This document shows, piece after piece, positions 29,007-47,926 of a stretch of DNA of 53,374 bases (its first letter is position 1; each line of letters begins with the position of its first letter). The translations under genes and the position numbers were made by a program. The notes beneath the pieces are model-generated. The model did not search any database and had not been told where the DNA came from. It worked only from the letters and a program-made list of their open reading frames with translations. Origin of the DNA: a virus. Taxonomy: Duplodnaviria; Caudoviricetes. The DNA is taken from the IMG/VR virus record IMGVR_UViG_3300042890_003727, positions 1-53,374 of that record, one strand, 5' to 3'.

Positions 29007-30032
29007 TTATTCGTTCTTAAGCAACCAAGAGTTTGAAATTGCTTTAAAGCTTCGATAATCAACGCTGTTGCTCTTAAATACAAGACCTTCTCGCTGGCAA
29101 GTATTCAATTGCGATTTACCTTCAGCTTGCTCAAGGATTCCAGCAATGCTTTCACCAACTAGCGAAATGCTTTCAGCTAGGATAGGTACGTGGTTTAATC
29201 CAAGACGCTCACAGGCAGCTTTAAGCTGAATTGGCAGCAAGTATCGCCCTGTGGAGGTATTGTACATATCGTAAACATAAAAGTCAAGCTGACGTTTGTA
29301 TGAATTGCCTTGGATACCTTCACCAATCATCTCACCTTGGATTGCCATGCCTAGCATAGTATTTCGGCGCATGACACCTTCAACATCGTATTTCCTAGCT
29401 ACTTTCCAAAAGCTGTTTACTTCGTCTTCCTTCAAGTCCAAATTACGTGAGCATACGTGAAATACTCCTTCTGCATCTAGATAGAAAGTGCAAGATGAAC
29501 CATCTAGCTTTTCAGTAATTGACCAGTCATCATCTTGATATTCATTATTGAATTGTTTTACAATATTTTGAATTCGCTCCTGATCTGTCTTTGGTACTAG
29601 CGCAGGAAAATTACCTCGGGCCATACCAGCGAGTTGAGCATTCATTGGCTTTTCCCACTTGATGATACAAAGCTCTTGTGTTACATCTTCACCTTCTTTT
29701 ACCATTGATTCAATATTGGAGTTATCTGCCAATGCAGTTAATCCCAGCAACAAACCTTGTGATAATTGACCACGTAGTTTTACAGTACGCAGGCGCTCAC
29801 CCTTTACACCTTCAAATACACGAGGTTCTTTATCTTTAGATAGAAAAGGTGCAAGCTCTGTAGGAACCCATGAATCAATTTCTAGGTAAATAGCAAGAGA
29901 ACCTGCACTGAACTCGCCTTTCTTTACTACAACTTTCCAGCCATCAACTACAGCTACTTCAATTGCATCAGCGCCCTCAATAGCTTCAATAGCTGAGATT
30001 TTACGGATTGTTGCAAGTTTACGTTCTGTCAT
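29007..30032 (-). CDS. RNA ligase, DRB0094/Rnl5-like
   Basis: RKLATI...I..IEGADAIE N-domain, KLRGQLSQGL, PKTDQERIQN, TEKLDGSS, EGLV, FKAISN. Confidence 0.88.
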   Translation of the reverse strand: MTERKLATIRKISAIEAIEGADAIEVAVVDGWKVVVKKGEFSAGSLAIYLEIDSWVPTELAPFLSKDKEPRVFEGVKGERLRTVKLRGQLSQGLLLGLTALADNSNIESMVKEGEDVTQELCIIKWEKPMNAQLAGMARGNFPALVPKTDQERIQNIVKQFNNEYQDDDWSITEKLDGSSCTFYLDAEGVFHVCSRNLDLKEDEVNSFWKVARKYDVEGVMRRNTMLGMAIQGEMIGEGIQGNSYKRQLDFYVYDMYNTSTGRYLLPIQLKAACERLGLNHVPILAESISLVGESIAGILEQAEGKSQLNTCQREGLVFKSNSVDYRSFKAISNSWLLKNE

Positions 30033-30201
30033 TTGTTTTCCTTTTAAAATATAATTTTGTAAAATAAGAAGTTGAAGCCATTGATAGGTTTGAATAAATA
30101 GTACCGAAAGACAAAAACATAATAAGTCCATCAAATACTTCACATAAACCAATTAGCATTAGTTCGTACTTCCTGAGTCTACTACCTGATTTTCTAAGCA
30201 T
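30019..30201 (-). CDS. hypothetical protein
   Basis: AGGAG RBS, operonic overlap. Confidence 0.55.
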   Translation of the reverse strand: MLRKSGSRLRKYELMLIGLCEVFDGLIMFLSFGTIYSNLSMASTSYFTKLYFKRKTNDRT

Positions 30202-30228: not shown

Positions 30229-31134
30229 TCACAAATCATCTTTGTGCCGAATACCAACCAGCACAGGAAATCTCGGGACACTGTAGCCATTACCTACATC
30301 AAAGTACTTTACCTTTGCTAGCTTGCCTTTGAGTTCGTTGCGCTCAAGCCATAGTTTAGCACGAAGATCATCGGTAAAACCACTTCCGCAAGTAAAAATC
30401 AGACCTTTTTCTGTCTCCAAGATCAAAGCCCCCATTGTATCCAGGGGTATCATTCCAGCTTTAGCAGTGCTGCGTTCAGTTCGACCTAGCTCATTTGTCT
30501 TTGCTTCATTTGAATTATGATACTTTGGCTCATACCCAATGATAAGAAATTCTTTATCTACAAAGCGTTTAACCTTTTGTAGTTCTGGTGTTTTAGTTCC
30601 AGACCTTCCGCATTTGTATTTACCGCATGCATCTCGTAGCATAATACCTTCAGCACCTTGAGCAAGCATCTTAGCTTCAAACTCTTCAATATCTACTAAG
30701 TTATTAACAGGATAATGCTCAAGTAGTTTTACTCTATCTGGTAAAGCACCAAAATCATTAAGTTGCTCAAGTCCTGCAAATCTAAATCTCCAATAAGAAA
30801 AATTAGCATATTCATCAAAGATCCAGAATGCGAAGTCAGGAGTACCATCTTGTCGCATTACACCGCTTGTGCTTTGATTAAACACATCAGGAGCGTTTTT
30901 ATCACCTACGATAAGCTCACCATCAACACCTTCAAGAACCTCGGCATGCTGCTTGAAATAAGCCTGAATAGAAGCATTAGGGATTGGCTTTAGACTGCGA
31001 GAGTAACCTACACCACCAAATACAATGCATCGAATACCATCAAGCTTTTCAGACATGTAAAGATTTTCTGGTTGTACTTTTACTTTACTTTGCTCAATTG
31101 CAAGCAAAGGTTTAAAACCATCAGGAATAGCCAT
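30229..31134 (-). CDS. ATP-dependent DNA ligase
   Basis: SEKLDGIRC, DGEL, EGIM, KVK, GSGF, PRFP motifs; GGAGG RBS before MAIPD. Confidence 0.93.
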   Translation of the reverse strand: MAIPDGFKPLLAIEQSKVKVQPENLYMSEKLDGIRCIVFGGVGYSRSLKPIPNASIQAYFKQHAEVLEGVDGELIVGDKNAPDVFNQSTSGVMRQDGTPDFAFWIFDEYANFSYWRFRFAGLEQLNDFGALPDRVKLLEHYPVNNLVDIEEFEAKMLAQGAEGIMLRDACGKYKCGRSGTKTPELQKVKRFVDKEFLIIGYEPKYHNSNEAKTNELGRTERSTAKAGMIPLDTMGALILETEKGLIFTCGSGFTDDLRAKLWLERNELKGKLAKVKYFDVGNGYSVPRFPVLVGIRHKDDL

Positions 31135-31459
31135 AAGATGATGCCTCCAAAATTTCTTTAAGTTTAATACTAATATTTCCAAGATGAAGAAGACGATCAT
31201 TTTCATCCAGAAATCCACCTAGAAATGGTTCATCTACATAATCATAAGAGTATATAACTTTACCACCTACATCTGGAATACTGCAATATAAATGCCCGTA
31301 TCGTAATCTAACATATGCAACTTGATATATTGAAGCATCTGCAGCAAAATAAATTACATCATACTGCTCAGGACAAGCAGGGCATGTACCTATAAATGCG
31401 AAATCATTAAACATATAATCAGGTTCATTATATAAAAATTCACCAACATATGGAATCAT
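31121..31459 (-). CDS. hypothetical protein
   Basis: TCPACPEQYD...YVRLRYG motif; AAGGAG RBS. Confidence 0.7.
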   Translation of the reverse strand: MIPYVGEFLYNEPDYMFNDFAFIGTCPACPEQYDVIYFAADASIYQVAYVRLRYGHLYCSIPDVGGKVIYSYDYVDEPFLGGFLDENDRLLHLGNISIKLKEILEASSYGYS

Positions 31460-32364: not shown

Positions 32365-32597
32365 CAGTACTCCATGTCAGAAATTGTTGCTGGCTTATAG
32401 ATGGTGTTGCGTGTCTCAATGCAACCATCCTCGTCTTTTTTCACTATCGCTGAAGTTCTCACGTTGTTTGCACTACCCAAAGCAGGATGGTCAACTACGA
32501 AGTCAAGGTGAGCAACCTCAATGTCTTCATTGTACAACCATTTTTCAATTCTAGCTTTACCTAGATATAAAACTACTGGTTTGTTACTGTTAGTCAT
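32364..32597 (-). CDS. hypothetical protein
   Basis: AAGGAG RBS; DHPALG...VRTS.IV...IETRNTIY. Confidence 0.7.
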   Translation of the reverse strand: MTNSNKPVVLYLGKARIEKWLYNEDIEVAHLDFVVDHPALGSANNVRTSAIVKKDEDGCIETRNTIYKPATISDMEY

Positions 32598-34323: not shown

Positions 34324-34725
34324 ATGCTTTCACTTTATTTAATTCGTGGACTTCCGGGTTCTGGTAAATCCAGCTTTGCTAGTACTTTAAAAAACTACGG
34401 TGTAGTGGATGAAGTATTCGAAGCAGATGATTTCTTTACTTCAATATCTGGTGTTTATAATTATGATTCTTCAAAAATCAAAGATGCTCATGCAATATGC
34501 AAAATGAATACCAGATATTTTCTATCACAAGGGCAGTCTGTAGCAGTATCTAATACTACAACAACTGAGTTTGAAGTAGGTGCTTATGAAATGATAGCAA
34601 TTGAATTCAATGCTAAGTTGATAAGCGCAGTTATCGAAAATAGGCATGGCAACTCAAGTATTCATGATGTACCAAATGATGTAGTTCAAAAAATGAAAAA
34701 TAGGTTTTCAATAAAATTATGCTAA
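34324..34725 (+). CDS. P-loop kinase (polynucleotide-kinase-like AAA domain)
   Basis: IRGLPGSGKS Walker A, EADD, VSNT, HDVP. Confidence 0.8.
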   Translation: MLSLYLIRGLPGSGKSSFASTLKNYGVVDEVFEADDFFTSISGVYNYDSSKIKDAHAICKMNTRYFLSQGQSVAVSNTTTTEFEVGAYEMIAIEFNAKLISAVIENRHGNSSIHDVPNDVVQKMKNRFSIKLC

Positions 34726-35594
34726 ACACTTATGATCAGCAAATCAATTTAGTAAATCGTGGATTAGCTATTTTGAAAAACGATGGTAAATACACCACTT
34801 TTAAATACTCACGTAAAGCCATGTATGATTACTTGTGGTACAAAGAACCTCAACTTAAGGAGTGCAGAGGTCATGTGTATGAGAACGATACGAAAAAACT
34901 TGTTCAGGCAGCACCAACAAAATGCTTCAATTATCTTGAGCGCCATCATTGGAGTCACCTACCATTAGATACTCCAGTTGAAATGCATAAGAAAATCAAT
35001 GGTTATATGGCTTGCGCTACAATGCACAATGGTGAACTAGTTGTAAGCACTACAGGTACAACTACAAGCGAATATGCAAAGTGGGCTAGGGAGTTATTAA
35101 ATAGTGATTACAAATTGCATAAGATGCTTGCACCAGATATTACTACACTGTTCGAAGTTATAGTACCGCAAGATCCTCATATTGTGCAAGAACGCGAAGG
35201 TTTGCATTTGCTTGGTATGCGTGAAAAAAATACAGGTAAATTTCATCCTCTAGGTGACTTCACTCATTGTACTCTTAAGCAAGCAATTTCAATTGCAACA
35301 GAAGATCGTGGTGAAGGTTTTATGATATATCCAATGCTACCTACTGGTCGTTATGATTATAACAATTGCTGCAAACTAAAAAGTCTTTACTACGTAGATA
35401 AGAAAAAATTGATGCGTATGACAGCAAAGAACATAGAACTGATGTATACTCGGACAGCAAATGCTTTTGATTATCTTGGTCTATCAGAAGTGTGGAAGTT
35501 TGCACCTAATCTGATAATTGAACATCATTCGAAAGAGGCTTGGTGCAACATGACAGATCAGCAACGAAGAAAGTTTTTAGAATACATAGAATAA
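34719..35594 (+). CDS. RNA ligase 1 (T4 Rnl1-like)
   Basis: ECRG, K.FN..E, motif I KING, TLFE, EGF, KLKS..Y. Confidence 0.8.
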   Translation: MLNTYDQQINLVNRGLAILKNDGKYTTFKYSRKAMYDYLWYKEPQLKECRGHVYENDTKKLVQAAPTKCFNYLERHHWSHLPLDTPVEMHKKINGYMACATMHNGELVVSTTGTTTSEYAKWARELLNSDYKLHKMLAPDITTLFEVIVPQDPHIVQEREGLHLLGMREKNTGKFHPLGDFTHCTLKQAISIATEDRGEGFMIYPMLPTGRYDYNNCCKLKSLYYVDKKKLMRMTAKNIELMYTRTANAFDYLGLSEVWKFAPNLIIEHHSKEAWCNMTDQQRRKFLEYIE

Positions 35595-36143: not shown

Positions 36144-36317
36144 ATGAAAACCAAGAAATTATGGATTGTTTATTGGGAAGACAATCGAAATGGTAATTCT
36201 GAATTTGTAGAATTGTGGTCTACAGAACAGTTAGCACAGGCTGCTGCAGAAAAATACGAAGAATCACATGCTGGTGTTCTAACTTTTACATACGAAGAAA
36301 TTGAGTTAATGAAATGA
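36144..36317 (+). CDS. small hypothetical protein (57 aa, not in ORF track)
   Basis: MKTKKLWIVYW...WSTEQLAQ; AAAGG RBS, ATGA overlap with next gene. Confidence 0.6.
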   Translation: MKTKKLWIVYWEDNRNGNSEFVELWSTEQLAQAAAEKYEESHAGVLTFTYEEIELMK

Positions 36318-36889
36318 AAATATTCACCAGTGATTTGCATTTTGGGCATAAAAGAATTGTGGAATTTACTAATCGTTCTAAGGAATGCTTATCTCAAGAA
36401 AACCACGACAGATGGTTAATTGATTTATGGTACACAGAAGTATCAGCAGGTGATACCGTTTATCATCTAGGTGATTTCTCATTCTTTAGTAAATACGATG
36501 ATGTAGCCAATGTAGTTAGTAAACTAAAAGGTCAAAAGATTTTTATCAAAGGTAATCATGATAGAAGAGATCATTTTGATCAATTAGTAAAAGATAATCT
36601 TATTGAAGCATGGTATGATTATAAAGAAATCAAAATAGCAAATTTCTCTGTTGCGTTATTTCACTTTCCTATTGCATCGTGGCATAAACAATCCTCTGGT
36701 TCTTGGCATTTACATGGGCACTGTCATGGAAATTTCAAGGATTCTAAAGGTAAAATGCTTGACGTAGGTATTGATTCGGTATATAATATGCATGGAAAGC
36801 ACAAATTTTTAGATGAACATCAGATTAAATACATGATGGAATTCACGCCAATATATCTAGCAGATGAACACAGAAAGGATTTAAGTTGA
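36314..36889 (+). CDS. calcineurin-like metallophosphoesterase
   Basis: SDLH.GH, GD, GNHD, H.P, HGHCH motifs. Confidence 0.9.
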   Translation: MKIFTSDLHFGHKRIVEFTNRSKECLSQENHDRWLIDLWYTEVSAGDTVYHLGDFSFFSKYDDVANVVSKLKGQKIFIKGNHDRRDHFDQLVKDNLIEAWYDYKEIKIANFSVALFHFPIASWHKQSSGSWHLHGHCHGNFKDSKGKMLDVGIDSVYNMHGKHKFLDEHQIKYMMEFTPIYLADEHRKDLS

Positions 36890-39792: not shown

Positions 39793-40312
39793 ATTACTTC
39801 TAGTATTTGTTTTAATCTCAAGTATTTTTATCACTGCTTATTTATTCAAGTTAACTCTTGAAGAAAAGATTAGGATAGAAATGCTTGAGGAATTTAAACA
39901 AAAAGAAAAACAATGCATTGCTACAGCTTTGTATCACGAAGCTAGAGGTGAAGGTGAGCTTGGTATGAAGGCTGTAGCTAATGTTATTCATAATAGATAT
40001 AATCATCCTAAGTATCCTAGTACTTATTGCGGAGTCATTAATCAGCATAAGCAGTTTAGTTATACTCTGGAGAAAAAACCAATAGGTAATGATTTGAAAG
40101 CATCTTTGATTATTTCAGATGCAAATAAAAAAGCTTATGATAAGGCTGAAGAAATTGCTGATGATTTAGTGCAAGATAACTTCAAGGGATTTTTACCTAG
40201 TAATGCACTTCATTATGCTACTACTAGAGTAAAAAATTACTGGACTAGAAGTAAACATGTAGTAATGCAAATTGGTAATCATAAATTCTATGCTGAAAAG
40301 GAAAAGAAATGA
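39782..40312 (+). CDS. cell wall hydrolase (SleB/Hydrolase_2-like) with N-terminal TM
   Basis: C.A.ALYHEARGE...AVA.VI.NR...QFS...IGNH.FY. Confidence 0.88.
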   Translation: MKYRLLLVFVLISSIFITAYLFKLTLEEKIRIEMLEEFKQKEKQCIATALYHEARGEGELGMKAVANVIHNRYNHPKYPSTYCGVINQHKQFSYTLEKKPIGNDLKASLIISDANKKAYDKAEEIADDLVQDNFKGFLPSNALHYATTRVKNYWTRSKHVVMQIGNHKFYAEKEKK

Positions 40313-41850
40313 ATGATCGTGATATTATGCAGCAGGTGCTGTCTGCGGTTGAATGGATTGCCAAACAACGTACTGGGGGCATGATCCAGCGTAAAGCAAC
40401 TGAAGTCATCACCGCACTGCGCGAGAGGCTGGCACAGCCAGAGCAGGAGCCTGTGGCGATTGCCTTGAATACAGGAACAAAGCAAGGTGTGAAGTGGCTG
40501 AAAAACGTAGAGCATGGTGAGAACCTTTACACCACCCCACCCGCAGCACAGCCAGCACAGCATCCGGTAGCGTTTGTAAACGCTGACCACTTGCAAGGCT
40601 TGACATTGGGGCATTACGGATACGCTGAAATTTACACAGATGAATCGCAAGGGCGAGTACCCCTCTACACCACCGCACCTGCAGCACCAATGACTGAGTT
40701 TGAAGAAGCTGTAGCTGCTTGCGACAACACGCTGCATTATGCTATTGACTATTGGCAAGACAGGGCGATGAAGGCAGAGGCACTGCTAACGCAGCCAGAA
40801 CTAACCAACCAATGCGGTGAAACCTGCGAGAGAGCCAAGTTGTGTGCAACCTGTGGGGGAATGCTTTCGCAGCCAGAGAAGCAGGCCGTGGCGATTGATT
40901 GGGACACCAAAACTGATACGCCCATCATGGGCTACACCGCCCCACCCGCAGCACTCACGCAGGAGCCTGTGGCGTGGATGTACCAATGCACCGCAGATAA
41001 CTCAAGGCCGGTGCTTTTACATCAAAAACAAAATTGGGCAGAAAGCGGTACAGGACTTTGGGTGGAATCACCCCTCTACACCACCGCACCTGCAGCAGTG
41101 CAGGAGCCTGTGGCGTATGAGTACGGCGATGAATTGTATTGGCACACAAACCCTGCACTGAACGATTACATCCGAGACAACGGGAAGGCTTTGGTTTATG
41201 CCACCACACCCGCAGCAGCGCAGCGCACATGGGTTGGGCTGACGGATGAGGAAGAAGATGCGGCGTCTTTACGCCCAAGCCATCGAAGCCAAACTCAAGG
41301 AGCTAAACAAATGACAAACAAACTGAACAAAATGTGGGCAGCACTAGCTGCTTATCAACCCCAAGCCGATGCCGCAGGGCATGGAAAATCTTGGGCGCGG
41401 ATGTGCAGTGAGAGGACTGCTGCTTCTGCTGATGCTGCTGCTGATGCTGCTGCTACAGCTTATGATGATGCTGCTGACGCTGCTTATGCTGCTGCTTATG
41501 CTGCTTATGCTGCTAATGCTGCTGCTGCTGAGTGGTCGTGTAAGGCGATTGATCGCATTAACAAAGTGCTCAAAATACAGCCAGCACCCGCAGCACCTGT
41601 GCAGGAGCCTCGCGGGTATCAATGGCTTGATACATCAGTGTTCCGTAAAAAACTGCCGGAAAACGCCGAGCCTGATGCGTGGAATGCCCTCTACACCACA
41701 CCACCCGCAGCACAGCCAGAACGCGATCTGATACGCCGAATGCAGGGGCAGATTGAGAGGCTTCAAGCGGCACTACATACGCTGCCTGACCGTGGACTTT
41801 CCGCGATGGTAGCCGGTCAGTTGCAAGCAGCACCAACAAATAAGCAATGA
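40309..41850 (+). CDS. GC-rich mosaic repeat protein (QEPVA...LYTTPPAA modules); probably two genes joined by a frameshift, second start at 41311
   Basis: Repeated constant blocks flank unrelated 13-32 aa inserts; AAGGAG + ATG at 41311; a natural-looking C-terminus YAQAIEAKLKELNK* lies in the +1 frame at 41258-41314. Confidence 0.7.
   Translation: MNDRDIMQQVLSAVEWIAKQRTGGMIQRKATEVITALRERLAQPEQEPVAIALNTGTKQGVKWLKNVEHGENLYTTPPAAQPAQHPVAFVNADHLQGLTLGHYGYAEIYTDESQGRVPLYTTAPAAPMTEFEEAVAACDNTLHYAIDYWQDRAMKAEALLTQPELTNQCGETCERAKLCATCGGMLSQPEKQAVAIDWDTKTDTPIMGYTAPPAALTQEPVAWMYQCTADNSRPVLLHQKQNWAESGTGLWVESPLYTTAPAAVQEPVAYEYGDELYWHTNPALNDYIRDNGKALVYATTPAAAQRTWVGLTDEEEDAASLRPSHRSQTQGAKQMTNKLNKMWAALAAYQPQADAAGHGKSWARMCSERTAASADAAADAAATAYDDAADAAYAAAYAAYAANAAAAEWSCKAIDRINKVLKIQPAPAAPVQEPRGYQWLDTSVFRKKLPENAEPDAWNALYTTPPAAQPERDLIRRMQGQIERLQAALHTLPDRGLSAMVAGQLQAAPTNKQ
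40444..41719 (+). repeat. dispersed intragenic repeats CAGGAGCCTGTGGCG and CCCTCTACACCAC(C/A)..ACC(C/T)GCAGCA
   Basis: CAGGAGCCTGTGGCG exact at 40444, 40960, 41101 (variant 41602); 26-bp exact repeat at 40661 and 41072; variants at 40524, 40933, 41200, 41687. Confidence 0.9.
41418..41529 (+). repeat. low-complexity GCT/GAT/TAT codon repeat (Ala-Asp-Tyr-rich tract)
   Basis: gctgctgatgctgct...gcttatgctgct. Confidence 0.85.
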
Positions 41851-42056
41851 TACGCTGGTTAGGTACAATTACTTACCTCATCAGCATGGTTCTTACTTCT
41901 TTAAATATTTATCCAATCAACCTAGTTTTTGGTGCAATCGGTGCTATACTGTGGTGCTTGGCTGGCTTGCAGTACAGAGACAATGCATTGATTGTTGGTG
42001 AAGTTGCATCTAGCGCAATTTATATTTTTGGTTTAATTGCATGGAGTTTAAAATGA
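41847..42056 (+). CDS. small membrane protein
   Basis: Three hydrophobic helices, YP.N motif. Confidence 0.7.
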   Translation: MIRWLGTITYLISMVLTSLNIYPINLVFGAIGAILWCLAGLQYRDNALIVGEVASSAIYIFGLIAWSLK

Positions 42057-42319
42057 CTGAAATGACTGAAATGACTAAAATGAACGAAAGAATTCAAGAA
42101 CTTGCTGAACGGGCTTTTCATGAAACCGCTTTGTATGGTGGTAAACAAGGTGAGAAAGGTTTTGACCAACGATACAGCGAAAAGTTCGCCGAGCTAATTG
42201 TTGGTCATGCTACGGAATGTGTGCGTGATGTTCTTCGTGATGAAAATTCAGAGTTGAGTTATGCTGCGGCAACACAGGTTCAGAATCGTATTAAAGAGTT
42301 TTTTGGAGTTGAAGAATGA
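42053..42319 (+). CDS. MNERI-family paralog 1
   Basis: MTEMTEMTK-MNERIQELAERA...KFAELIV...EC...FFGVEE. Confidence 0.8.
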   Translation: MTEMTEMTKMNERIQELAERAFHETALYGGKQGEKGFDQRYSEKFAELIVGHATECVRDVLRDENSELSYAAATQVQNRIKEFFGVEE

Positions 42320-42522
42320 ACGAACGAATTAAGAAACTTATTGAACAAGCCACTAGCATTGAGTACGGTGCAGATAATGGTTTTGACCGTGTGACTTTTG
42401 ATAAAGAGAAGTTTGCTGCTTTGGTTATAAAAGAATGCAGTGAGTATCTTTGGCATTATGAACCTGAATGGTATTACACCAAAGAAAACAAAATGTTTGA
42501 ATTTTTCGGAGTTAAAGAATGA
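42316..42522 (+). CDS. MNERI-family paralog 2
   Basis: MNERIKKLIEQA...KFAALVIKEC...FFGVKE. Confidence 0.8.
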   Translation: MNERIKKLIEQATSIEYGADNGFDRVTFDKEKFAALVIKECSEYLWHYEPEWYYTKENKMFEFFGVKE

Positions 42523-42722
42523 AGATAGAAACAGTAACAATGGATCGTGAATTTCCATTTTGGGTTGTTGCTGAATATAAACCGGGCAAGCGAGTTACTA
42601 AAGATATGATAACTTTTGATACTAACCGTCCGGATGTTCATGTAAACAAGTATGGCGTGGTACTATTCTATAATACTGATACGGCACTGATGTTGTTGGA
42701 AAAAGATTTCGGAGTTGAATAA
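42519..42722 (+). CDS. hypothetical cassette ORF ending FGVE
   Basis: Unrelated to the MNERI family but bounded by junction repeats. Confidence 0.7.
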   Translation: MKIETVTMDREFPFWVVAEYKPGKRVTKDMITFDTNRPDVHVNKYGVVLFYNTDTALMLLEKDFGVE

Positions 42723-42859
42723 TGAACGAACTATTAAATCTACTGTTTACCCAGCGTGATCAATTTTCTGCAATAGAATTTGAGTTCTTGGTTAAGTTGA
42801 TTGAAGATGGTACTATTGTTTCTTTTGAAGAACTTGCAGAATATGGAGTTGAAGAATGA
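42722..42859 (+). CDS. 45-aa cassette ORF (MNELLNLL...YGVEE), not in ORF track
   Basis: Starts and ends in junction repeats. Confidence 0.7.
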   Translation: MNELLNLLFTQRDQFSAIEFEFLVKLIEDGTIVSFEELAEYGVEE

Positions 42860-42933
42860 TTTATGTTGTAACTGCTTTCAATGCAATCATTGTGTTGTTT
42901 CTGTTGTACCTATTGGTATTCCATTGTAAATGA
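42856..42933 (+). CDS. 25-aa hydrophobic cassette peptide (MIYVVTAFNAIIVLFLLYLLVFHCK)
   Basis: Starts at junction ATGA; stop directly abuts the next junction. Confidence 0.55.
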   Translation: MIYVVTAFNAIIVLFLLYLLVFHCK

Positions 42934-42947
42934 GGAGTTGAAGAATA

Positions 42948-43103
42948 ATGTGGCAAATCTATAGAAAGCGACCAGACGGCACTCACTTGGATATCTGTGG
43001 TGAGTACTTTGACACCGAGCAAGAAGCCCAGGAACGTGCCGAGTATCTGGATGATGCATGGTTAGCAATGGGTGATTATCATTGGGTGAAGGAAGTAATA
43101 TGA
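42948..43103 (+). CDS. 51-aa cassette ORF (MWQIYRK...), not in ORF track
   Basis: Start supplied by junction GGAGTTGAAGAATAATG. Confidence 0.65.
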   Translation: MWQIYRKRPDGTHLDICGEYFDTEQEAQERAEYLDDAWLAMGDYHWVKEVI

Positions 43104-43318
43104 ACGAACGAATTAAAGCATTAGCCGTCGAAGCAGACTTCATGCTTTGTGAGGACGATCACTTTTACAGCGAGGGCCATTCACAAAAAATTACCAAACA
43201 ACTACAAAAGCTCGCCGAGTTGATTGTTGGGGAATGTGCTGAAGTTGCTAATGCACATGACTGTAATCATTCTGGCAATGATGGTGCAATTTTGAATTAT
43301 TTCGGAGTTAAAGAATGA
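43100..43318 (+). CDS. MNERI-family paralog 3
   Basis: MNERIKALAVEA...KLAELIVGECA...YFGVKE. Confidence 0.8.
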   Translation: MNERIKALAVEADFMLCEDDHFYSEGHSQKITKQLQKLAELIVGECAEVANAHDCNHSGNDGAILNYFGVKE

Positions 43319-43557
43319 AAACAATTTACAAATATACTCTAGATGGGTCGGTGTATATACCACAAGGCTCGACCGTTGTGCAAGTTGGTGTCCAGGATGG
43401 ACTTTACTGCATATGGGCTGCGGTTGATACTGATGCTCCTGTCGAAGAACGGGTTTTTGTTGTAGTCGGCACAGGTAGCGAGTTAAGTGACAATATGGTC
43501 CATGTTGGTACTGTGTTCGAGAATCCATTTGTATGGCATATTATGGAGTTAATATGA
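43315..43557 (+). CDS. hypothetical cassette ORF
   Basis: MKTIYKY...WAAVD...R.F.VVGTG...VGT...VWH, a common small phage protein pattern. Confidence 0.75.
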   Translation: MKTIYKYTLDGSVYIPQGSTVVQVGVQDGLYCIWAAVDTDAPVEERVFVVVGTGSELSDNMVHVGTVFENPFVWHIMELI

Positions 43558-43784
43558 ACGAACGAATTAAAGAACTGGTTGAGCAGGCTACTCCAAGACC
43601 TTACCGATCACAAGGCTTCGGTGGGGAACCGACACACATCTATCCAGGAACCCTTGACCAAGTAAAGTTCGCTGAGTTGATTGTTAGGGAATGTGTTGAG
43701 ATTTGTGATAATACAATTAGTGATTTGGATGGTTGGTATGCTGCTTGTAAACAGATTAGGGAACATTTCGGAGTTGAATCATGA
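43554..43784 (+). CDS. MNERI-family paralog 4
   Basis: MNERIKELVEQA...KFAELIVREC...EHFGVES. Confidence 0.8.
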   Translation: MNERIKELVEQATPRPYRSQGFGGEPTHIYPGTLDQVKFAELIVRECVEICDNTISDLDGWYAACKQIREHFGVES

Positions 43785-44002
43785 ACATAGATAAAAGCGC
43801 AATATTCTCGCAATGTGTCTACGATGTAGATAATCGGTATGTTGATTTAAGGATTGAGCCTACCTTTGGTGATTCGTTCATGCTTATTATGACGGATGCA
43901 TCCGATGAGGAAGAATCCAACACCGAGATTGAACTCTTTCTCACAAAAGAAAATTTAAAAATTATAATTGACCGTTTGACTGAGGTTTTGAATAATGAAT
44001 GA
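43781..44002 (+). CDS. hypothetical acidic cassette ORF
   Basis: Starts at junction ATGA. Confidence 0.7.
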   Translation: MNIDKSAIFSQCVYDVDNRYVDLRIEPTFGDSFMLIMTDASDEEESNTEIELFLTKENLKIIIDRLTEVLNNE

Positions 44003-44315
44003 AATAATTAAAGAACTTGCAAATCAATGCGGATTTAGAAGTAATCCTGATATATATGATCGTAATCAATCATTTGATATTCCAAAGTTTGCTGAGTTAA
44101 TTGTTCAGGAATGTATCGGCATCGTTAAGCAAAGATGGATTAATCCTGACGAAGATGTAATCGCCGAAGAAATTAAACAACATTTCGGAGTTGAAGAACT
44201 GAAAAAAGTTGCACCTAAGTCTAGATGTAGTGTATGTGGTACAACTGAAAATGTAAAGTATATGGGCGGCTATCAACCTTACCTATGTGATTCAGAAGAT
44301 TGTATTCCGTTTTAA
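43995..44315 (+). CDS. MNERI-family paralog 5 fused to a Cys4 peptide
   Basis: MNEIIKELANQC...KFAELIVQEC...HFGVEE-L-KKVAPKSRCSVC...LC...C. Confidence 0.75.
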   Translation: MNEIIKELANQCGFRSNPDIYDRNQSFDIPKFAELIVQECIGIVKQRWINPDEDVIAEEIKQHFGVEELKKVAPKSRCSVCGTTENVKYMGGYQPYLCDSEDCIPF

Positions 44316-44339
44316 GGAGTTGAAGAATAACCACACAAC

Positions 44340-44380
44340 TTAGTCAACTATTGTTTTTTCTTAAAAAACTGTGCTATACT
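44340..44380 (+). promoter_or_regulatory. early-type promoter
   Basis: TTAGTCAACTA, TTGTTT, TGCTATACT, then CAACAAGGAG. Confidence 0.65.
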
Positions 44381-44406
44381 TGCATCATCGCAACAAGGAG
44401 AGCATC

Positions 44407-44601
44407 ATGGGATACAAAGTAATCGCAGACAAGACAGAGATGGACATCATGCGCGTGAAGTACAGCCAGCGAGAAGGTCTTGAAGGACCATTTAACTTCT
44501 ACGGTAGGGTTCTTTACTACGACAACAAAGAAGGTCAGTACTACGATCCTACTACGGATTTCTACGTAGAACAAAGTGAAATGAATGAGCTTCTTAAGTA
44601 A
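44407..44601 (+). CDS. hypothetical protein
   Basis: AAGGAG RBS; GLEGPF...LYYD.KEG.YYDP.TD.YV. Confidence 0.7.
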   Translation: MGYKVIADKTEMDIMRVKYSQREGLEGPFNFYGRVLYYDNKEGQYYDPTTDFYVEQSEMNELLK

Positions 44602-44610
44602 GGAAATGAA

Positions 44611-45000
44611 ATGCCTAAACTCCTGATAAAAACACAAATTTATGAAAACTACGGTTATCGCTGGAAAGCCAAAGGTGATTCTGATTATGTAATTAAGAAT
44701 TTTGATTTTAGCGCCAATGAAACTAATTTAATTGTAAGTAAGATTCGTTCAAGGATTGAATACAGCAATGATTCTTTTATTGAAAAGATTATTGACTGGA
44801 AAATAGTTCCTGATGAGTATCTTACTGAGTTTGAACAAAGTCAGTTGGATTATGAAGGCTTTATTAAATATAGTCCTGTGGAGTTGTTCCTTGATAATTT
44901 AGGGTATTTCACAGAAGATTGGGAACCTTCAGATGAATGGTTCAGGGAGCAAGCTGGATACAATAACCCTAAAAATCACTCAGGTATTGTTTTTCCTTAA
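44611..45000 (+). CDS. hypothetical protein
   Basis: TQ..ENY..WK.KG..Y; TEFE.SQL.YEG.I.Y. Confidence 0.7.
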   Translation: MPKLLIKTQIYENYGYRWKAKGDSDYVIKNFDFSANETNLIVSKIRSRIEYSNDSFIEKIIDWKIVPDEYLTEFEQSQLDYEGFIKYSPVELFLDNLGYFTEDWEPSDEWFREQAGYNNPKNHSGIVFP

Positions 45001-45015
45001 AAATCCTGCTACAAT
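44978..45015 (+). promoter_or_regulatory. early-type promoter
   Basis: ACTCAGGT, TTGTTT-17-TACAAT with TGc. Confidence 0.65.
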
Positions 45016-45042
45016 GACTGCTCATCAACACAGAAGGTCTTC

Positions 45043-45246
45043 ATGATAAAATACTACAGTGAAAAAGTTCGCAAGGTAAAGGAAGGTAGCATCATTACAA
45101 TCCAAATCTTGAAGAATGAAGAGTGGGTTAAGTACTGGTCAACTGATGAAAGGAGCAATGATTATGCTTATTCAGAATCTACCAAAGTAGCAAGTAACTT
45201 GATATCAACAATGAGTTCCGTTAATTCAGCTAATAAACAAAACTAA
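45043..45246 (+). CDS. hypothetical protein
   Basis: ORF track, follows promoter. Confidence 0.6.
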   Translation: MIKYYSEKVRKVKEGSIITIQILKNEEWVKYWSTDERSNDYAYSESTKVASNLISTMSSVNSANKQN

Positions 45247-45258
45247 GATTGGTTTATA

Positions 45259-45711
45259 ATGAAAATTAAAGTTAACCTAATTGATCCTATCTCTGCAGGT
45301 AAATTCTCTGAAGAAGAGAACAGGGATTGCTCTGTACGTGCATTGGCAAATGCTGCTGATATTGATTATGATGAAGCTCATGATTTACTTGCTTATCATG
45401 GAAGACCTGATAAAAGAGGTGTTGATCATAAAACACTTATGAGTGCTTATAGAGATGCAGGGTTTACTAAGATTAAAACTTTTGGTACTACCAAGATGGC
45501 TTGGCATTTTAACTTTAATTACAAAGATATTATTGAATCAAAAGAAAAAGGTATTACGCTGGATAACTTCTGCAAGAAATACAACAAAGGAAGATTTATT
45601 GTTGTATACGCTGGGCATGCTCTTGCTGTTGTCAATGGTAGCATAATTGACAAATTTTCAAATCTTGCCAACAAGCGCGTGACTGTAGCTTTTGCTAAAA
45701 GTTGGAAATAA
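45259..45711 (+). CDS. hypothetical protein, possible Cys-His-Asp (papain-like) fold
   Basis: DCSVRALA...GHA..V.NG..ID. Confidence 0.55.
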   Translation: MKIKVNLIDPISAGKFSEEENRDCSVRALANAADIDYDEAHDLLAYHGRPDKRGVDHKTLMSAYRDAGFTKIKTFGTTKMAWHFNFNYKDIIESKEKGITLDNFCKKYNKGRFIVVYAGHALAVVNGSIIDKFSNLANKRVTVAFAKSWK

Positions 45712-45720
45712 CCCTTCGGT

Positions 45721-45760
45721 TTAGTCAACTACAGGCACAACGTAATTTTTCTGCTATAAT
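45721..45760 (+). promoter_or_regulatory. early-type promoter
   Basis: TTAGTCAACTA ... TGCTATAAT, then CTTCAACAAC leader. Confidence 0.65.
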
Positions 45761-45792
45761 TTAACCTTCAACAACTTCAAAGGAATTTAAAA

Positions 45793-46059
45793 ATGATTTA
45801 CTCCAAGTCCCTCGCTAGCATCATCGACAACAGCAATGGCAAAATGCTCACCGTTACGTTCATCAAGAAAGACGGTACTGAGCGAGTTCTAAACGGTCGT
45901 ATTGGTGTAACAAAGTACATCAAAGGTGCTGGCACTAAAAATAAACCAGATGAGTTCATCAGCATTTATGATGTTCAAGCAAAAGGATATCGAAGTGTAA
46001 ATCGCAGCACTATTGTTGCTGTTCGATCTGCAGGTATTGAAGCTTTTGCTGTGAGGTAA
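45793..46059 (+). CDS. SH3/Sm-like (WYL-like) small protein
   Basis: TVTFIKKDG.ER...YD....GYRS. Confidence 0.6.
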   Translation: MIYSKSLASIIDNSNGKMLTVTFIKKDGTERVLNGRIGVTKYIKGAGTKNKPDEFISIYDVQAKGYRSVNRSTIVAVRSAGIEAFAVR

Positions 46060-46065
46060 TAAAGC

Positions 46066-46287
46066 ATGAGTCGAAGCATTATTCAAATGGCGCTGGATGC
46101 TGGGTTTGAATCCAACTCCTTGGGAATGACTTACACAAGTGGGAGGCTTTCCGACTTGCTTGAATGCTTTGCTGCGCTTATCCGTGCAGATGAGCGATAT
46201 CAAGCTCAGGAGCGCGTGGTTGACTTGTTTGCAGATATGGAAGACCCTTATTTACCAGACATTGTTGCTGCGATTATGGGGAAATAA
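46066..46287 (+). CDS. hypothetical protein, distantly MNERI-like
   Basis: IIQMA.DAGF...LE.FAALI. Confidence 0.65.
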   Translation: MSRSIIQMALDAGFESNSLGMTYTSGRLSDLLECFAALIRADERYQAQERVVDLFADMEDPYLPDIVAAIMGK

Positions 46288-46301
46288 TGTCTGACTTTTT
46301 T

Positions 46302-46340
46302 ACTCAGGTTATTTTCCTTCTTTGTAATTTGTGCTACAAT
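46302..46340 (+). promoter_or_regulatory. early-type promoter
   Basis: ACTCAGGT ... TGCTACAAT, then AACAACAGGAG. Confidence 0.65.
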
Positions 46341-46367
46341 AAGTTTTCCAAACAACAGGAGTCACTG

Positions 46368-46721
46368 ATGCTAGAACTTCAAGAAATTTATATGCAAGCG
46401 GTTAATGCTGGTCTTAAAGCAGTATCTGAACTGGAAGTACAACCAATGGTAGTTATTGATGAAGATAGGAAATTTTCTTATTTTGTTTCAGATGGAGCAT
46501 GTGGATTTGCATGGATTCAGATTAAGCCAGCAAATAGCAAGTTTGTAAAATATTTGAAAGAGCAAGGTATTGGCAGGAAGTCAATATATGAAGCAGGTTA
46601 TAGAATCGGTGTATCTGAATTTAATCAAAGCTTGCAGAAGAAAGAAGCTTATGCTAATGCATTTGCTGAAGTACTTCAAAAGCACGGCATCAATGCTGTT
46701 TCTAACTCACGCATGGATTAA
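46368..46721 (+). CDS. hypothetical protein
   Basis: AGGAG RBS; CGFAW...QS...KEA.A.AFA.VL...GI.....SRMD. Confidence 0.75.
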   Translation: MLELQEIYMQAVNAGLKAVSELEVQPMVVIDEDRKFSYFVSDGACGFAWIQIKPANSKFVKYLKEQGIGRKSIYEAGYRIGVSEFNQSLQKKEAYANAFAEVLQKHGINAVSNSRMD

Positions 46722-46723
46722 TT

Positions 46724-46936
46724 ATGAATAAAATAATTCAAGAACTGATCCAGCAGTCAATGGTTGAATATCAATTTCAGAATCGTTTTAGTCCAGAGAA
46801 GTTTGCCGAATTAATTGTGCGTGAATGTGCTAGAATTGTCAGTAATACTAACTTGGAAGATGTTGATGGTGGAGATAGTGCTGTGCTAGGGGCCGCCCGA
46901 GAACAGATTTTAGAACATTTCGGAGTTGAAGAATGA
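46724..46936 (+). CDS. MNERI-family paralog 6
   Basis: MNKIIQELIQQS...KFAELIVRECA...EHFGVEE. Confidence 0.8.
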   Translation: MNKIIQELIQQSMVEYQFQNRFSPEKFAELIVRECARIVSNTNLEDVDGGDSAVLGAAREQILEHFGVEE

Positions 46937-47079
46937 AATTCAAATTTGAAATGAGCGATGCTTGGGACGACGACTACATCATCGTCATAGAAGCCAAAAC
47001 TGAGAAAGAAGCGTGGCACATTGCCACGATGATCGATGACGATGCGGTGCCAGATAAACTACTCGGAGTTGAAGAATGA
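46933..47079 (+). CDS. 48-aa cassette ORF (MKFKFEM...LLGVEE), not in ORF track
   Basis: Bounded by two exact junction repeats. Confidence 0.75.
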   Translation: MKFKFEMSDAWDDDYIIVIEAKTEKEAWHIATMIDDDAVPDKLLGVEE

Positions 47080-47282
47080 ACGAACGAATTCGAGAGCTTC
47101 TGTTACAGGCTACCACCCTTAACGGCCCATTCATAAGGTTTAAAGTTGACCAAGAGAAATTCGCCGAGTTGATTGTTAGGGAATGCGCTGGAGTATGTGA
47201 AGACTATCGTGGTACTGAGTGGGGTAAAGCTGCTGAGTGCATTGGTGACAGCATTAAAGAGCATTTTGGAGTTGAAGAATGA
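47076..47282 (+). CDS. MNERI-family paralog 7
   Basis: MNERIRELLLQA...KFAELIVRECA...EHFGVEE. Confidence 0.8.
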   Translation: MNERIRELLLQATTLNGPFIRFKVDQEKFAELIVRECAGVCEDYRGTEWGKAAECIGDSIKEHFGVEE

Positions 47283-47446
47283 AATTGATTTTATCATTAT
47301 TTACAACATACATTGTAGCATTCACAGTTACTTATGGGCATTCCTATCATCAAGTTGGTTCAGCACTTGCTGTACACAAAGCGATTGGAGCATTCATTTC
47401 ATCAATGTTCTGGCCTCTTTATTGGTCTGTTCAAGTATGGAAATAG
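47279..47446 (+). CDS. 55-aa membrane cassette ORF (MKLILSL...WPLYWSVQVWK)
   Basis: Starts at junction ATGA; stop overlaps next junction. Confidence 0.7.
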   Translation: MKLILSLFTTYIVAFTVTYGHSYHQVGSALAVHKAIGAFISSMFWPLYWSVQVWK

Positions 47447-47456
47447 GAGTTAAAAA

Positions 47457-47627
47457 ATGAACGATGAAATAAAATTGCCAGTTGAAGTACGGTTAGTGGT
47501 GAGAGATAGAGCTGTGGAACTAGATGATACTCACGAATTGCTAAATCATTTACAGGATATTGTAAATGAATGGTATTGGAAATATGTTCCTACTATCCCA
47601 TGCAGTGTAGTGTCTAAAGGTCGATGA
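47457..47627 (+). CDS. 56-aa cassette ORF (MNDEIKLP...)
   Basis: Starts in junction GGAGTTAAAAAATGA. Confidence 0.65.
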   Translation: MNDEIKLPVEVRLVVRDRAVELDDTHELLNHLQDIVNEWYWKYVPTIPCSVVSKGR

Positions 47628-47926
47628 TGAACGAACAAATCAAACTACTTGCTGAACAAGCTGGCTTTGTACTCTGGAAAGATGAGGATTATAATCCTGG
47701 GGATATTATTGATTGGAGTTCTCGTTACGATAATGAACTTCAAAAGTTCTCAGAATTACTTATAGCAAAATGCATTGAAATATGCAACAAGGTATCACAA
47801 GATGCTGATATTAAAACCAAGAATAAGTTCTTAACTGAAGCTGGTATTGTACTTCATGAAGGTATATGGGCAGGTGCTAAAGATTGCCAGTGCAGTATCA
47901 AAAATTATTTTGAAAGTGAGCAATAA
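47624..47926 (+). CDS. MNERI-family paralog 8 (divergent)
   Basis: MNEQIKLLAEQAG...KFSELLIAKC...IKNYFESEQ. Confidence 0.75.
   Translation: MMNEQIKLLAEQAGFVLWKDEDYNPGDIIDWSSRYDNELQKFSELLIAKCIEICNKVSQDADIKTKNKFLTEAGIVLHEGIWAGAKDCQCSIKNYFESEQ

Follow-up and report, generated by a model that had tools for sequence, protein, structure and literature searches.

The stretch of DNA analysed in this study (the window) is a 53,374-bp viral metagenome record, IMGVR_UViG_3300042890_003727, with an estimated completeness of 66%. Between positions 42043 and 47926 it carries an array of small genes, many of which are joined by a 15-nucleotide repeat, GGAGTTRAAGAATGA, referred to here as the junction. Our analysis revealed that the junction is the 3' end of the genes of a very large uncharacterised lake-phage protein family, which we name FAM, and not a free-standing element, and that it is conserved as DNA beyond what the encoded peptide needs. 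FAM genes have a common anatomy, in which three short blocks alternate with variable segments. The blocks are conserved at synonymous sites, the 3' block is coupled to the next gene by a recurrent geometry, and similarity between phages breaks at all three blocks. We consider it likely that the blocks constitute a lattice of short homologies, through which homologous recombination shuffles half-genes and small genes while the 3' block keeps the neighbours coupled. Homologous recombination as the source of these breaks is what we infer, and the same applies to which enzymes would act.

FAM proteins are ~70 amino acids long and share a layout in which two variable parts separate an initial MNERIKEL, a central KFAELIVREC and a terminal (I)KEHFGVEE, right before the stop. 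The window contains eight members, starting at 42053/42080, 42316, 43100, 43554, 43995, 46724, 47076 and 47627. All eight match the family profile over the full length, the two most divergent with E-values of 3.6e-19 and 1.1e-15. At E<=1e-3 the family has 8,732 representatives (50% identity), and 1,458 at E<=1e-10; a word-indexed protein search found 1,831 FAM proteins, and at least 516 FAM stretches are present in viral contigs and at least 485 in metagenome contigs. For comparison, 80 viral loci were kept, found with one FAM protein as the query and taken from contigs of 4 to 356 kb (1.17 Mb in total). In these loci and the window, the family profile identified 385 FAM open reading frames (ORFs; 299 unique), with a maximum of 18 in a 20-kb locus, and the FAM proteins in the loci are 40-68% identical to the query. 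FAM has no Pfam match above the cut-off and no PHROG match, and tblastn with two members matched none of 50,697 GenBank phage records. A structure model with a pLDDT (predicted local confidence) of 90.6 consists of a helix, a beta-hairpin and two further helices. It has no fold match in the PDB at E<=0.001, and its only look-alikes, found in BFVD and the ESM Atlas, are all uncharacterised and come from uncultured phages. A weak match of the eighth family gene to DUF6798 (E 0.0036) fell below the cut-off.

The linkage of neighbouring segments was mapped in 165 sequences (the loci and the window), reduced to 139 non-redundant ones with 1.32 Mb and 496 FAM ORFs. In pairs of FAM genes from different non-redundant loci, a segment was counted as shared at an identity of at least 0.8 and as unshared below 0.6. 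The numbers of pairs at the three blocks and in three controls are as follows.

Across the 5' block: both segments shared in 3 pairs, one only in 170, intermediate in 22.
Across the mid block: both shared in 10, one only in 392, intermediate in 8.
Across the junction: both shared in 4, one only in 212, intermediate in 26.
Control, within one variable segment: both shared in 206, one only in 4, intermediate in 75.
Control, within non-family genes with a 36-nucleotide gap: both shared in 130, one only in 16, intermediate in 129.
Control, boundary between two non-family genes without the motif: both shared in 37, one only in 14, intermediate in 19.

Similarity breaks at the three blocks in 87-96% of the informative pairs, compared with 1-20% in the three controls. 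Similarity is interrupted at the junction in 212 of 242 informative pairs and at other gene boundaries in 14 of 70, in a comparison of diverged loci without clean indels between close relatives; as a point of interruption, the mid-gene block is no weaker than the junction. On a per-gene basis, the adjacent segment is retained in 6 of 71 genes at the 5' block, 17 of 142 at the mid block and 8 of 138 at the junction, compared with 127 of 158 in the control. The two variable halves of FAM genes assort independently, with 10 pairs that share both halves against 392 that share one only, and 17 of 142 genes that keep both.

Similar breaks are seen in the window itself. Family gene 7 (the family genes are numbered in their order along the array) is a mosaic with its break at the mid block, its 5' half resembling loci L014, L009, L010 and L015 and its 3' half L011 and L012. 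In family gene 6, just the 3' half (46799-46937) matches L051, at 90%, again with the break at the mid block. In addition, five non-family ORFs of the window match otherwise unrelated loci with 71-90% DNA identity; junctions bound the matches, and the neighbours differ.

ORF3 region, 42504-42719, + strand: 90% DNA identity to L038:2785-2997, bounded by junctions.
ORF5 region, 42845-42946, + strand: 89% identity to L014:561-662, which has other neighbours.
ORF10 region, 43765-43999, + strand: 71% identity to L071:4412-4650.
ORF13 region, 46912-47079, + strand: 80% identity to L064:904-1071, bounded by junctions on both sides.
ORF15 region, 47263-47453, + strand: 76% identity to L017:19338-19528.

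ORF13 is also present in record 24 of run X4, where it lies behind 323 unlike letters. The preliminary description of this DNA had proposed a plug-and-play array. This idea survives in that adjacent small genes recur in unrelated contigs with the similarity ending at the junction, and needs to be revised in that the junction is one of three such blocks. Two segments that are adjacent in L053 (7676-8120, with a junction at 7833 between them) are found in L073 (9427-11069) with their order reversed and 1.3 kb between them, at 79-86% identity, an example of reordering between related arrays. Two of the small genes of the window, at 42856-42933 (25 residues) and 47279-47446 (55 residues), encode hydrophobic peptides that are kept in unrelated contigs (L014:572-649 and L017:19354-19521) at 89% and 76%, and short hydrophobic ORFs are frequent beside FAM genes in other loci too. 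The common ground between 80 metagenome loci and the window consists of blocks or single modules only. Likewise, lake-metagenome contigs match the window over the blocks only and diverge at the edges 42079, 42115, 43206, 43246, 46936 and 47065; this comparison was made with contigs, and the lake-water labels of the runs that hold most of the stretch may belong to its source sample. Contig 'joints' between paralogous window positions were considered as deletions and rejected, being other family members that match the conserved blocks; stretches left uncovered by contigs and small word shares were given no weight.

The junction recurs in other phages on one strand. Present in 76 of the 80 loci, it has 262 copies with at most one mismatch on the gene strand and 0 on the other. 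Together with 11 copies of the window this gives 273, of which 200 form the end of a FAM gene, 45 that of another frame with 20 codons or more, and 28 are short or non-coding; downstream of them lie 90 FAM genes, 173 other ORFs and, in 10 cases, nothing. The preliminary description had suggested that the DNA unit rather than the peptide is conserved, and codon usage shows conservation as DNA in addition to that of the peptide. In 119 unique FAM ORFs that end in GVEE, Gly is encoded by GGA in 116 (background 28%), Val by GTT in 112 (40%) and both Glu residues by GAA in 119 and 119 (77%), and the TGA stop has an ATGA overlap in 116.

The other two blocks are conserved in the same way. The three blocks of a FAM gene are the 5' end (ATGAACGAACGAATT...), the mid block coding for KFAELIVREC and the 3' end (..TTCGGAGTTGAAGAATGA). 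Codons of the first two were counted in 395 genes. In the mid block, AAG has a frequency of 0.89 against a background of 0.37, GCC 0.85 against 0.30, GAG 0.86 against 0.19 and TTG 0.86 against 0.35; in the 5' block, AAC has 0.86 against 0.47, CGA 0.91 against 0.38 and CTT 0.70 against 0.25. These codons are position-specific and not generally preferred: Glu is GAG in the mid block and GAA elsewhere, and Lys is AAG at position 28 and AAA at position 61. Per-column conservation is high in columns 1-24, 79-111 and 180-204 and low in the others. Since the mid-gene block is also fixed at synonymous sites, a ribosome-binding role is not the sole cause of the conservation. RNA structure was rejected as a cause, as seven junctions fold like shuffled sequences and 60 diverse genes have a consensus fold energy of -0.5 kcal/mol. 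The heptamer GAGTTGA, found in the mid and 3' blocks, was rejected as a genome-wide hotspot; the window has 22 copies against 8.25 expected, but 14 are in the array and 8 outside.

The junction links a FAM gene to whatever follows it. Its 15 letters (GGA GTT GAA GAA TGA) are FAM's last four codons and the stop, and the ATG of the next gene is made of the A of the final GAA and the TG of the stop. Direct reading confirmed the earlier claim that the repeat supplies both a stop and an overlapping start, with a Shine-Dalgarno-like GGAG, a 7-nucleotide A-rich spacer and the ATG overlapping the stop. Following 398 unique complete FAM genes, the next ORF has an ATGA overlap in 315, another overlap in 29, a distance of 0-29 nucleotides in 36 (mostly TAATG) and is missing in 18; the directly followed genes thus number 380. 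The exact motif is present in 191 of the 315 ATGA-coupled FAM genes, compared with 3 of the 18 without a following ORF. The junction appears to start the translation of whatever gene comes next, with GGAG as the probable ribosome-binding site. GGAGtTGA agrees with 7 of 8 positions of the extended Shine-Dalgarno sequence GGAGGTGA, for which we assume the usual 3' end of 16S rRNA.

In the window, GGAGTTRAAGAATGA has seven exact copies, all on the + strand (at 42305, 42508, 42845, 43304, 46922, 47065 and 47268), where 0 are expected from 100 shuffles. With up to two mismatches there are 12 + strand copies, all in 42.3-47.5 kb (0.44 expected), the additions being 42711, 42934, 43770, 44316 and 47446; the lone - strand match at this threshold, at 32594, is unrelated. 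Direct reading brings in one further copy inside a gene and in frame (44187-44198), as well as three that indels have made degenerate (42043-42056, 43545-43557 and 43982-43997). The earlier figure of about 16 copies is therefore right when the degenerate ones are included (12 and 4), and too high as a near-exact count. Every copy maps to a gene boundary, where the original description had said almost every one, and the exact 15-mer is found nowhere else in the window, as originally described. The junction copies at up to two mismatches and one of the degenerate copies are listed below.

42043-42056, + strand: degenerate junction (GGAGTT-TAAAATGA), in another frame, at the end of a 69-residue ORF (41847-42056).
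42305-42319, + strand: exact junction, family gene 1 to family gene 2.
42508-42522, + strand: exact junction, A variant, family gene 2 to ORF3.
42711-42725, + strand: junction with 1 mismatch and a TAATG overlap, ORF3 to ORF4.
42845-42859, + strand: exact junction, ORF4 to ORF5.
42934-42948, + strand: non-coding junction with 1 mismatch, after the ORF5 stop, serving ORF6.
43304-43318, + strand: exact junction, A variant, family gene 3 to ORF8.
43770-43784, + strand: junction with 2 mismatches, family gene 4 to ORF10.
44316-44330, + strand: non-coding junction with 1 mismatch and the ATG lost (..AATAA), at the end of block 1 of the array, with no coupled gene after it.
46922-46936, + strand: exact junction, family gene 6 to ORF13.
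47065-47079, + strand: exact junction, ORF13 to family gene 7.
47268-47282, + strand: exact junction, family gene 7 to ORF15.
47446-47460, + strand: non-coding junction with 1 mismatch, after the ORF15 stop, serving ORF16.

Two further claims of the preliminary description hold. The repeat is found on unrelated ORFs, as tails of the ..FGVEE type end the non-family ORFs that stop at 42722 (..DFGVE), 42859 (..YGVEE) and 47079 (..LLGVEE), none of which matches the family profile significantly (the best is ORF 42722-42859, with E 0.06 in its N-terminal part only). The repeat also persists after earlier stops, as the non-coding copies at 42934, 44316 and 47446 follow stops at 42933, 44315 and 47446. 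GGAGTT serves as the Shine-Dalgarno form of at least six non-array window genes too, and 46 of 82 ORFs have an ATGA start context. The parts of the motif are therefore the usual start context of this phage, and the concern that the motif might be general ribosome-binding context applies to them; the exact 15-mer is confined to the array. No recurrent hairpin was found at seven junctions folded against shuffled sequences (z from -1.99 to +1.19), none of the four inverted repeats in the window lies at a junction, and promoter-like sites in 41.5-48.5 kb number 20 against 20.8 expected, with none at junctions. The tyrosine integrase family PF00589 was not found in the window, which represents 66% of the genome, in a search whose controls were positive. 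The absence of an integrase or attC hairpin noted previously was thus reproduced for the window. Excised circles were not seen either, in data that consist of contigs.

The genes of the array, with the conserved mid-gene block, are as follows.

42053-42319, + strand: family gene 1, with the family-type start MNERIQEL at 42080, ending ..FFGVEE; E 3.6e-19.
42316-42522, + strand: family gene 2, MNERIKKL...FFGVKE.
42519-42722, + strand: ORF3, non-family, 67 residues, ending ..KDFGVE, with family likeness confined to the last 8 residues.
42722-42859, + strand: ORF4, 45 residues, MNELLNLL...YGVEE; E 0.06, profile positions 1-18 only.
42856-42933, + strand: ORF5, a 25-residue hydrophobic peptide with a junction copy on each side.
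42948-43103, + strand: ORF6, 51 residues, starting from the non-coding junction copy at 42934.
43100-43318, + strand: family gene 3, by the family profile.
43315-43557, + strand: ORF8, 80 residues, phrog_3848 (function unknown); E 1.4e-13.
43554-43784, + strand: family gene 4, by the family profile, ending ..HFGVES.
43654-43708, + strand: mid-gene conserved block (KFAELIVREC), repeat family D1, in family gene 4; further copies of the D1 repeat family at 42398-42452, 43197-43251, 44074-44128, 46788-46842 and 47146-47200.
43781-44002, + strand: ORF10, an open reading frame of 73 residues.
43995-44315, + strand: family gene 5 with a 39-residue Cys-rich extension in frame (44199-44315), by the family profile and direct reading.
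46724-46936, + strand: family gene 6, by the family profile.
46933-47079, + strand: ORF13, 48 residues, ending ..LLGVEE.
47076-47282, + strand: family gene 7, mosaic by DNA similarity to other loci.
47279-47446, + strand: ORF15, an open reading frame of 55 residues, hydrophobic.
47457-47627, + strand: ORF16, 56 residues, starting from the non-coding junction copy at 47446.
47627-47926, + strand: family gene 8, divergent, ending ..YFESEQ, without a junction copy; E 1.1e-15.

The ORFs starting at 42519, 42722, 42856, 42948, 43781, 46933, 47279 and 47457 have no match to the family profile, the best E-value being 0.06. ORF4 is possibly a collapsed family gene of which just the two ends are left. 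Family gene 1 has several possible in-frame starts; the likely one at 42053 adds MTEMTEMTK, which is encoded by about three units of a 9-nucleotide tandem repeat, ATGACTGAA, at 42053-42079. Family gene 5 reads ..GGAGTTGAAGAA-CTG.. where other copies read ..GAATGA.., and the sequence at 44199 is ..GAAGAACTGA.. compared with ..GAAGAATGA.. at other junctions. The Cys-rich extension that results is bounded by the internal junction copy at 44187-44198 and by the non-coding one at 44316, right after its stop. The arrangement suggests that it was once a separate cassette that became fused by one extra base, and no free-standing homologue of the extension was found in the loci. In record 26 of run X5, 44114 and 44316 are joined through 81 letters, compared with 201 in the window, as read at the level of coordinates only; on either side, this contig shows 4 and 9 differences from the window. 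These coordinates hint at what a relative without the ~120 nucleotides around the extension would give.

How could such arrays arise? The three kinds of block are near-identical in nucleotides across hundreds of lake-phage contigs and the stretches between them differ, so that crossovers in the blocks could take place during co-infection by different phages or among the copies of a single genome. Three kinds of module would then assort independently, namely each of the two variable halves of a FAM gene and the small genes that separate FAM genes. The 3' block combines three roles: it encodes FGVEE, contains the TGA stop, and offers GGAG, an A-rich spacer and the stop-overlapping ATG, such that any gene arriving downstream would be translated by coupling. 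Under this proposal, unrelated ORFs would have ..FGVEE tails, and non-coding copies would survive, because crossovers took place at or in the 3' block. A tail of this kind is also present on an unrelated small protein of another locus, a 40-residue hydrophobic ORF in L041 that ends ..KKDFGVTE. Of the enzymes that might act, an exonuclease and endonuclease VII are present in the window. RecT was not found there, in a search of recombinase families that covered RecT and the tyrosine integrases; a model of the Enc34-type single-stranded DNA-binding protein had no window match and none in the control genomes either, and is uninformative.

Several observations weigh against this proposal. The blocks are short, ~24-36 nucleotides, and no recombinase was identified. 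The pairs in the linkage map are not independent, a problem that the per-gene counts lessen and do not remove. A BLAST-extension test gave a weaker contrast: similarity ends at most 36 nucleotides from the start in 79% of 224 motif-preceded rows and in 56% of 974 control rows, and for partners that are at least 85% identical the values are 48% of 89 and 24% of 178. The control value of 56% indicates that single-gene mosaicism is common in these regions without the motif; the blocks therefore sharpen a pattern that is already there. Most of the 16 ORF3 homologues found keep the tail, with an ending of ..KDFGVEE or similar. Within this family the tail is passed on, and thus it can belong to a protein stably and need not be the trace of a recent recombination. 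A junction marks the start of 180 non-family ORFs. Of these, 44 also carry one at or beyond the stop codon, in 48 a FAM start comes next and 88 have neither, leaving 136 of 180 without a junction at their own 3' end. As only 44 of 180 are two-sided, the usual unit is a FAM gene, a junction and another gene, and not a repeat-flanked cassette. The comparative data come entirely from metagenome assemblies, in which repeats can cause mis-joins. Finally, no close relative of the window's own array was found, and no gain, loss or reordering was seen at its junctions, apart from the hint given by record 26 of run X5.

The lattice of blocks could serve a more specific purpose. FAM arrays might be a phage-encoded system of combinatorial diversification, in which the blocks are built-in recombination adapters, conserved because of the shuffling; we regard this as possible and rather doubtful. 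The two surface-forming variable segments of a protein with a helix, hairpin, helix, helix fold would be continually reshuffled. Up to 18 variants per genome and thousands of clusters at 50% identity would suit an arms race, for instance if FAM proteins were binders or inhibitors of variable host defence or surface proteins, and the 3' adapter would allow a captured small gene to be expressed at once by coupling.

An explanation without a role in recombination is plain paralogy, by which the motif would be the C-terminus of a duplicated family that happens to hold the ribosome-binding site of the next gene, and the mosaicism would be of the usual kind in phage early regions, where illegitimate recombination and selection exchange one gene at a time. 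It accords with the finding that 200 of 273 motif copies are FAM C-termini, with GGAGTT at six or more non-array genes and ATGA at 46 of 82 ORFs, with the single-gene similarity blocks in motif-less controls (56% against 79%) and with the inherited tail of the ORF3 family. However, it does not account for synonymous sites that are fixed at the junction and the mid block with position-specific codons, or for mid-block breaks in 392 of 410 informative pairs compared with 16 of 275 within other genes. The exact 15-mer on unrelated ORFs and in non-coding DNA, and ATGA overlaps that leave no intergenic slack for imprecise joints, also speak against it, and we consider it unlikely.

The synonymous conservation of all three blocks could instead reflect recognition of nucleic acid by a phage or host factor, such as a translational repressor, an endoribonuclease or a DNA-binding protein, with the breaks as a by-product. 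T4 RegA and RegB are the models for a repressor and an endoribonuclease that act on early mRNAs. The strict strand specificity (262 against 0) and the invariant GGAG of the junction would be expected of such a factor. The blocks, however, share just GAGTTGA, which is not enriched outside the array (8 copies, against 8.25 expected in the whole window), no conserved RNA structure is present in the seven junctions or the 60 genes, and no candidate factor was identified. By itself, recognition also fails to explain the independent assortment of the segments. We regard it as still less probable.

A third concern is that metagenome assemblers mis-join phages at short shared blocks and that the assortment is chimerism. 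All loci are metagenome assemblies, and the k=31 contigs of run X2 break at 42303-42330, 43078-43107, 46914-46943, 47066-47092 and 47457-47486, exactly at the blocks, which are therefore branch points in assembly graphs. On the other hand, the same arrays were found in different samples with 99.9-100% identity over 12-20 kb (for example L012/L013, L016/L017 and L075/L077), which argues against wholesale chimerism. The blocks, at ~24-36 nucleotides, are below read length, so reads span them, and the synonymous conservation and the non-family tails are independent of assembly. An artefact of this kind is very improbable.

Integron-like site-specific cassettes, with the junction as the attachment site of a dedicated recombinase and circles as intermediates, are the least credible account, and the preliminary idea of an integron-like array, taken in this strongest form, is not upheld: the motif does lie on both sides of ORF5, ORF13 and ORF15 and of 44 of 180 genes across the loci, and direct repeats of GGAGTTGAAGAA at 44187 and 44316 flank the extension, but the junction is the 3' end of a protein family, 136 of 180 junction-started genes have no 3' junction, the window has no tyrosine integrase and its junctions no hairpin or inverted repeat, the family's carriers range from 4-kb to 356-kb contigs, and two other, different blocks break equally strongly, which a single site-specific enzyme would not explain.

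The phage that carries the array has PHROG matches to a tape measure protein, a central tail fibre, DNA polymerase, a primase-helicase, ribonucleotide reductase, ligases, an exonuclease and endonuclease VII, and these suggest a siphovirus-like type. A megablast search with 42.0-47.7 kb gave zero matches among GenBank phages, and the backbone protein at 46287-46718 matched just four viral contigs, all distant (42-43% identity). The annotated ATG of that gene (46287-46721) is probably wrong; positions 46312-46340 hold a promoter-like repeat, and cAGGAGtcactgATG at 46369 is a better start. Between the two junction blocks of the array, genes are separated by an intergenic repeat (44326-44385, 44962-45020, 45707-45765 and ~46300-46345; families D9 and D11) that reads AATAACC..TTAGTCAACTA..TTGTTTTTyCTTAAAAA and then (C/G)TGCTAyAAT, and resembles an extended -10 promoter. 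Transcriptional repeats may thus be in use there, and translational junctions in the arrays. Directly upstream of the array is a 513-residue ORF (40309-41850, + strand) that has no PHROG match. The peptide ..LYTT(P/A)PAA(Q/V).. recurs in it at least five times, alongside a stretch rich in Ala. The GC content of its 2-kb bin is 0.49, compared with 0.31-0.39 elsewhere in the window, and the ORF may stem from a donor with a higher GC content. Elsewhere, an RNA ligase (29007-30152, - strand), an ATP-dependent DNA ligase (30229-31218, - strand), a second RNA-ligase-like protein (34719-35594, + strand) and a phosphoesterase (36314-36889, + strand), given in the same order as their families phrog_968, phrog_114, phrog_562 and phrog_547, together resemble what we take to be the RNA-repair set that T4 uses against anticodon nucleases.

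Our analysis bears on a general question. Phage early regions contain many small genes of unknown function, and how these turn over fast without broken expression is poorly understood. FAM arrays, which abound in lake viromes, provide a case defined by sequence: the joint between two genes appears to be a boundary of exchange and at the same time the place where translation of the next gene begins, and the same logic extends inside genes. They offer a testable model of modular evolution by short conserved blocks outside T4-type phages, and the junction may offer a natural 'adapter' for coupling arbitrary genes. FAM itself is flagged as a very large uncharacterised family, with 8,732 clusters at 50% identity, and the shuffling of its half-genes hints at a function in an arms race.

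Several known systems resemble the array in part. Integron cassette arrays consist of small, promoterless, same-strand genes of varied content that are joined by a repeated sequence, and FAM arrays similarly have small, varied genes on one strand with a repeated joint. Unlike in integrons, there is no integrase, no attC-type hairpin and no sign of site-specific recombination, and the repeat belongs to a coding sequence. In the modular theory of lambdoid phages, conserved linker or boundary sequences at gene boundaries were proposed to target homologous recombination between differing phages. The FAM junction differs from those linkers in having a defined sequence that recurs in hundreds of contigs, with conserved synonymous sites and a link to translational coupling.

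The preliminary description knew of no account of this element. A word search of open-access text likewise found none of FAM or the junction, whereas close conceptual precedents exist in the promoter-early stem-loops (PeSLs; PMC2839356, PMC4122927) and in gp38 (PMC3157838). The PeSLs of T4-type phages (Arbiol et al., 2010, PMC2839356; Comeau et al., 2014, PMC4122927) are proposed crossover points of homologous recombination, at which flanked genes are inserted, deleted or swapped and arrivals find ready expression signals; they are intergenic, ~100 bp long, and combine a sigma-70-type promoter with a terminator stem-loop, and mini-circles were shown physically. The FAM junction is similarly a repeat, at which similarity between phages breaks and which would provide a newcomer with expression signals. 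In contrast to PeSLs, it is 15-30 nucleotides long and mostly coding, lacks a hairpin and has no promoter above chance, and its signals are for translation and not for transcription. It is also part of a protein family with two further blocks, occurs in other phage types and is known from sequence alone.

A second precedent lies in tail-fibre genes of T-even phages, for which Tetart et al. in 1998 reportedly described 'recombination between conserved motifs'. In gp38 of these phages (Trojet et al., 2011, PMC3157838), glycine-rich motifs separate hypervariable segments and are thought to mediate their swapping. Within one FAM gene, short conserved motifs alternate with variable segments in a similar way. 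Unlike gp38, which is a single-copy receptor-binding protein of the virion, FAM proteins are ~70 residues long, multi-copy and of unknown function, and are encoded among small, presumably early genes. Moreover, the terminal block of a FAM gene appears to be the start signal of the next gene, which sets it apart from gp38 in that shuffling would reach the neighbours.

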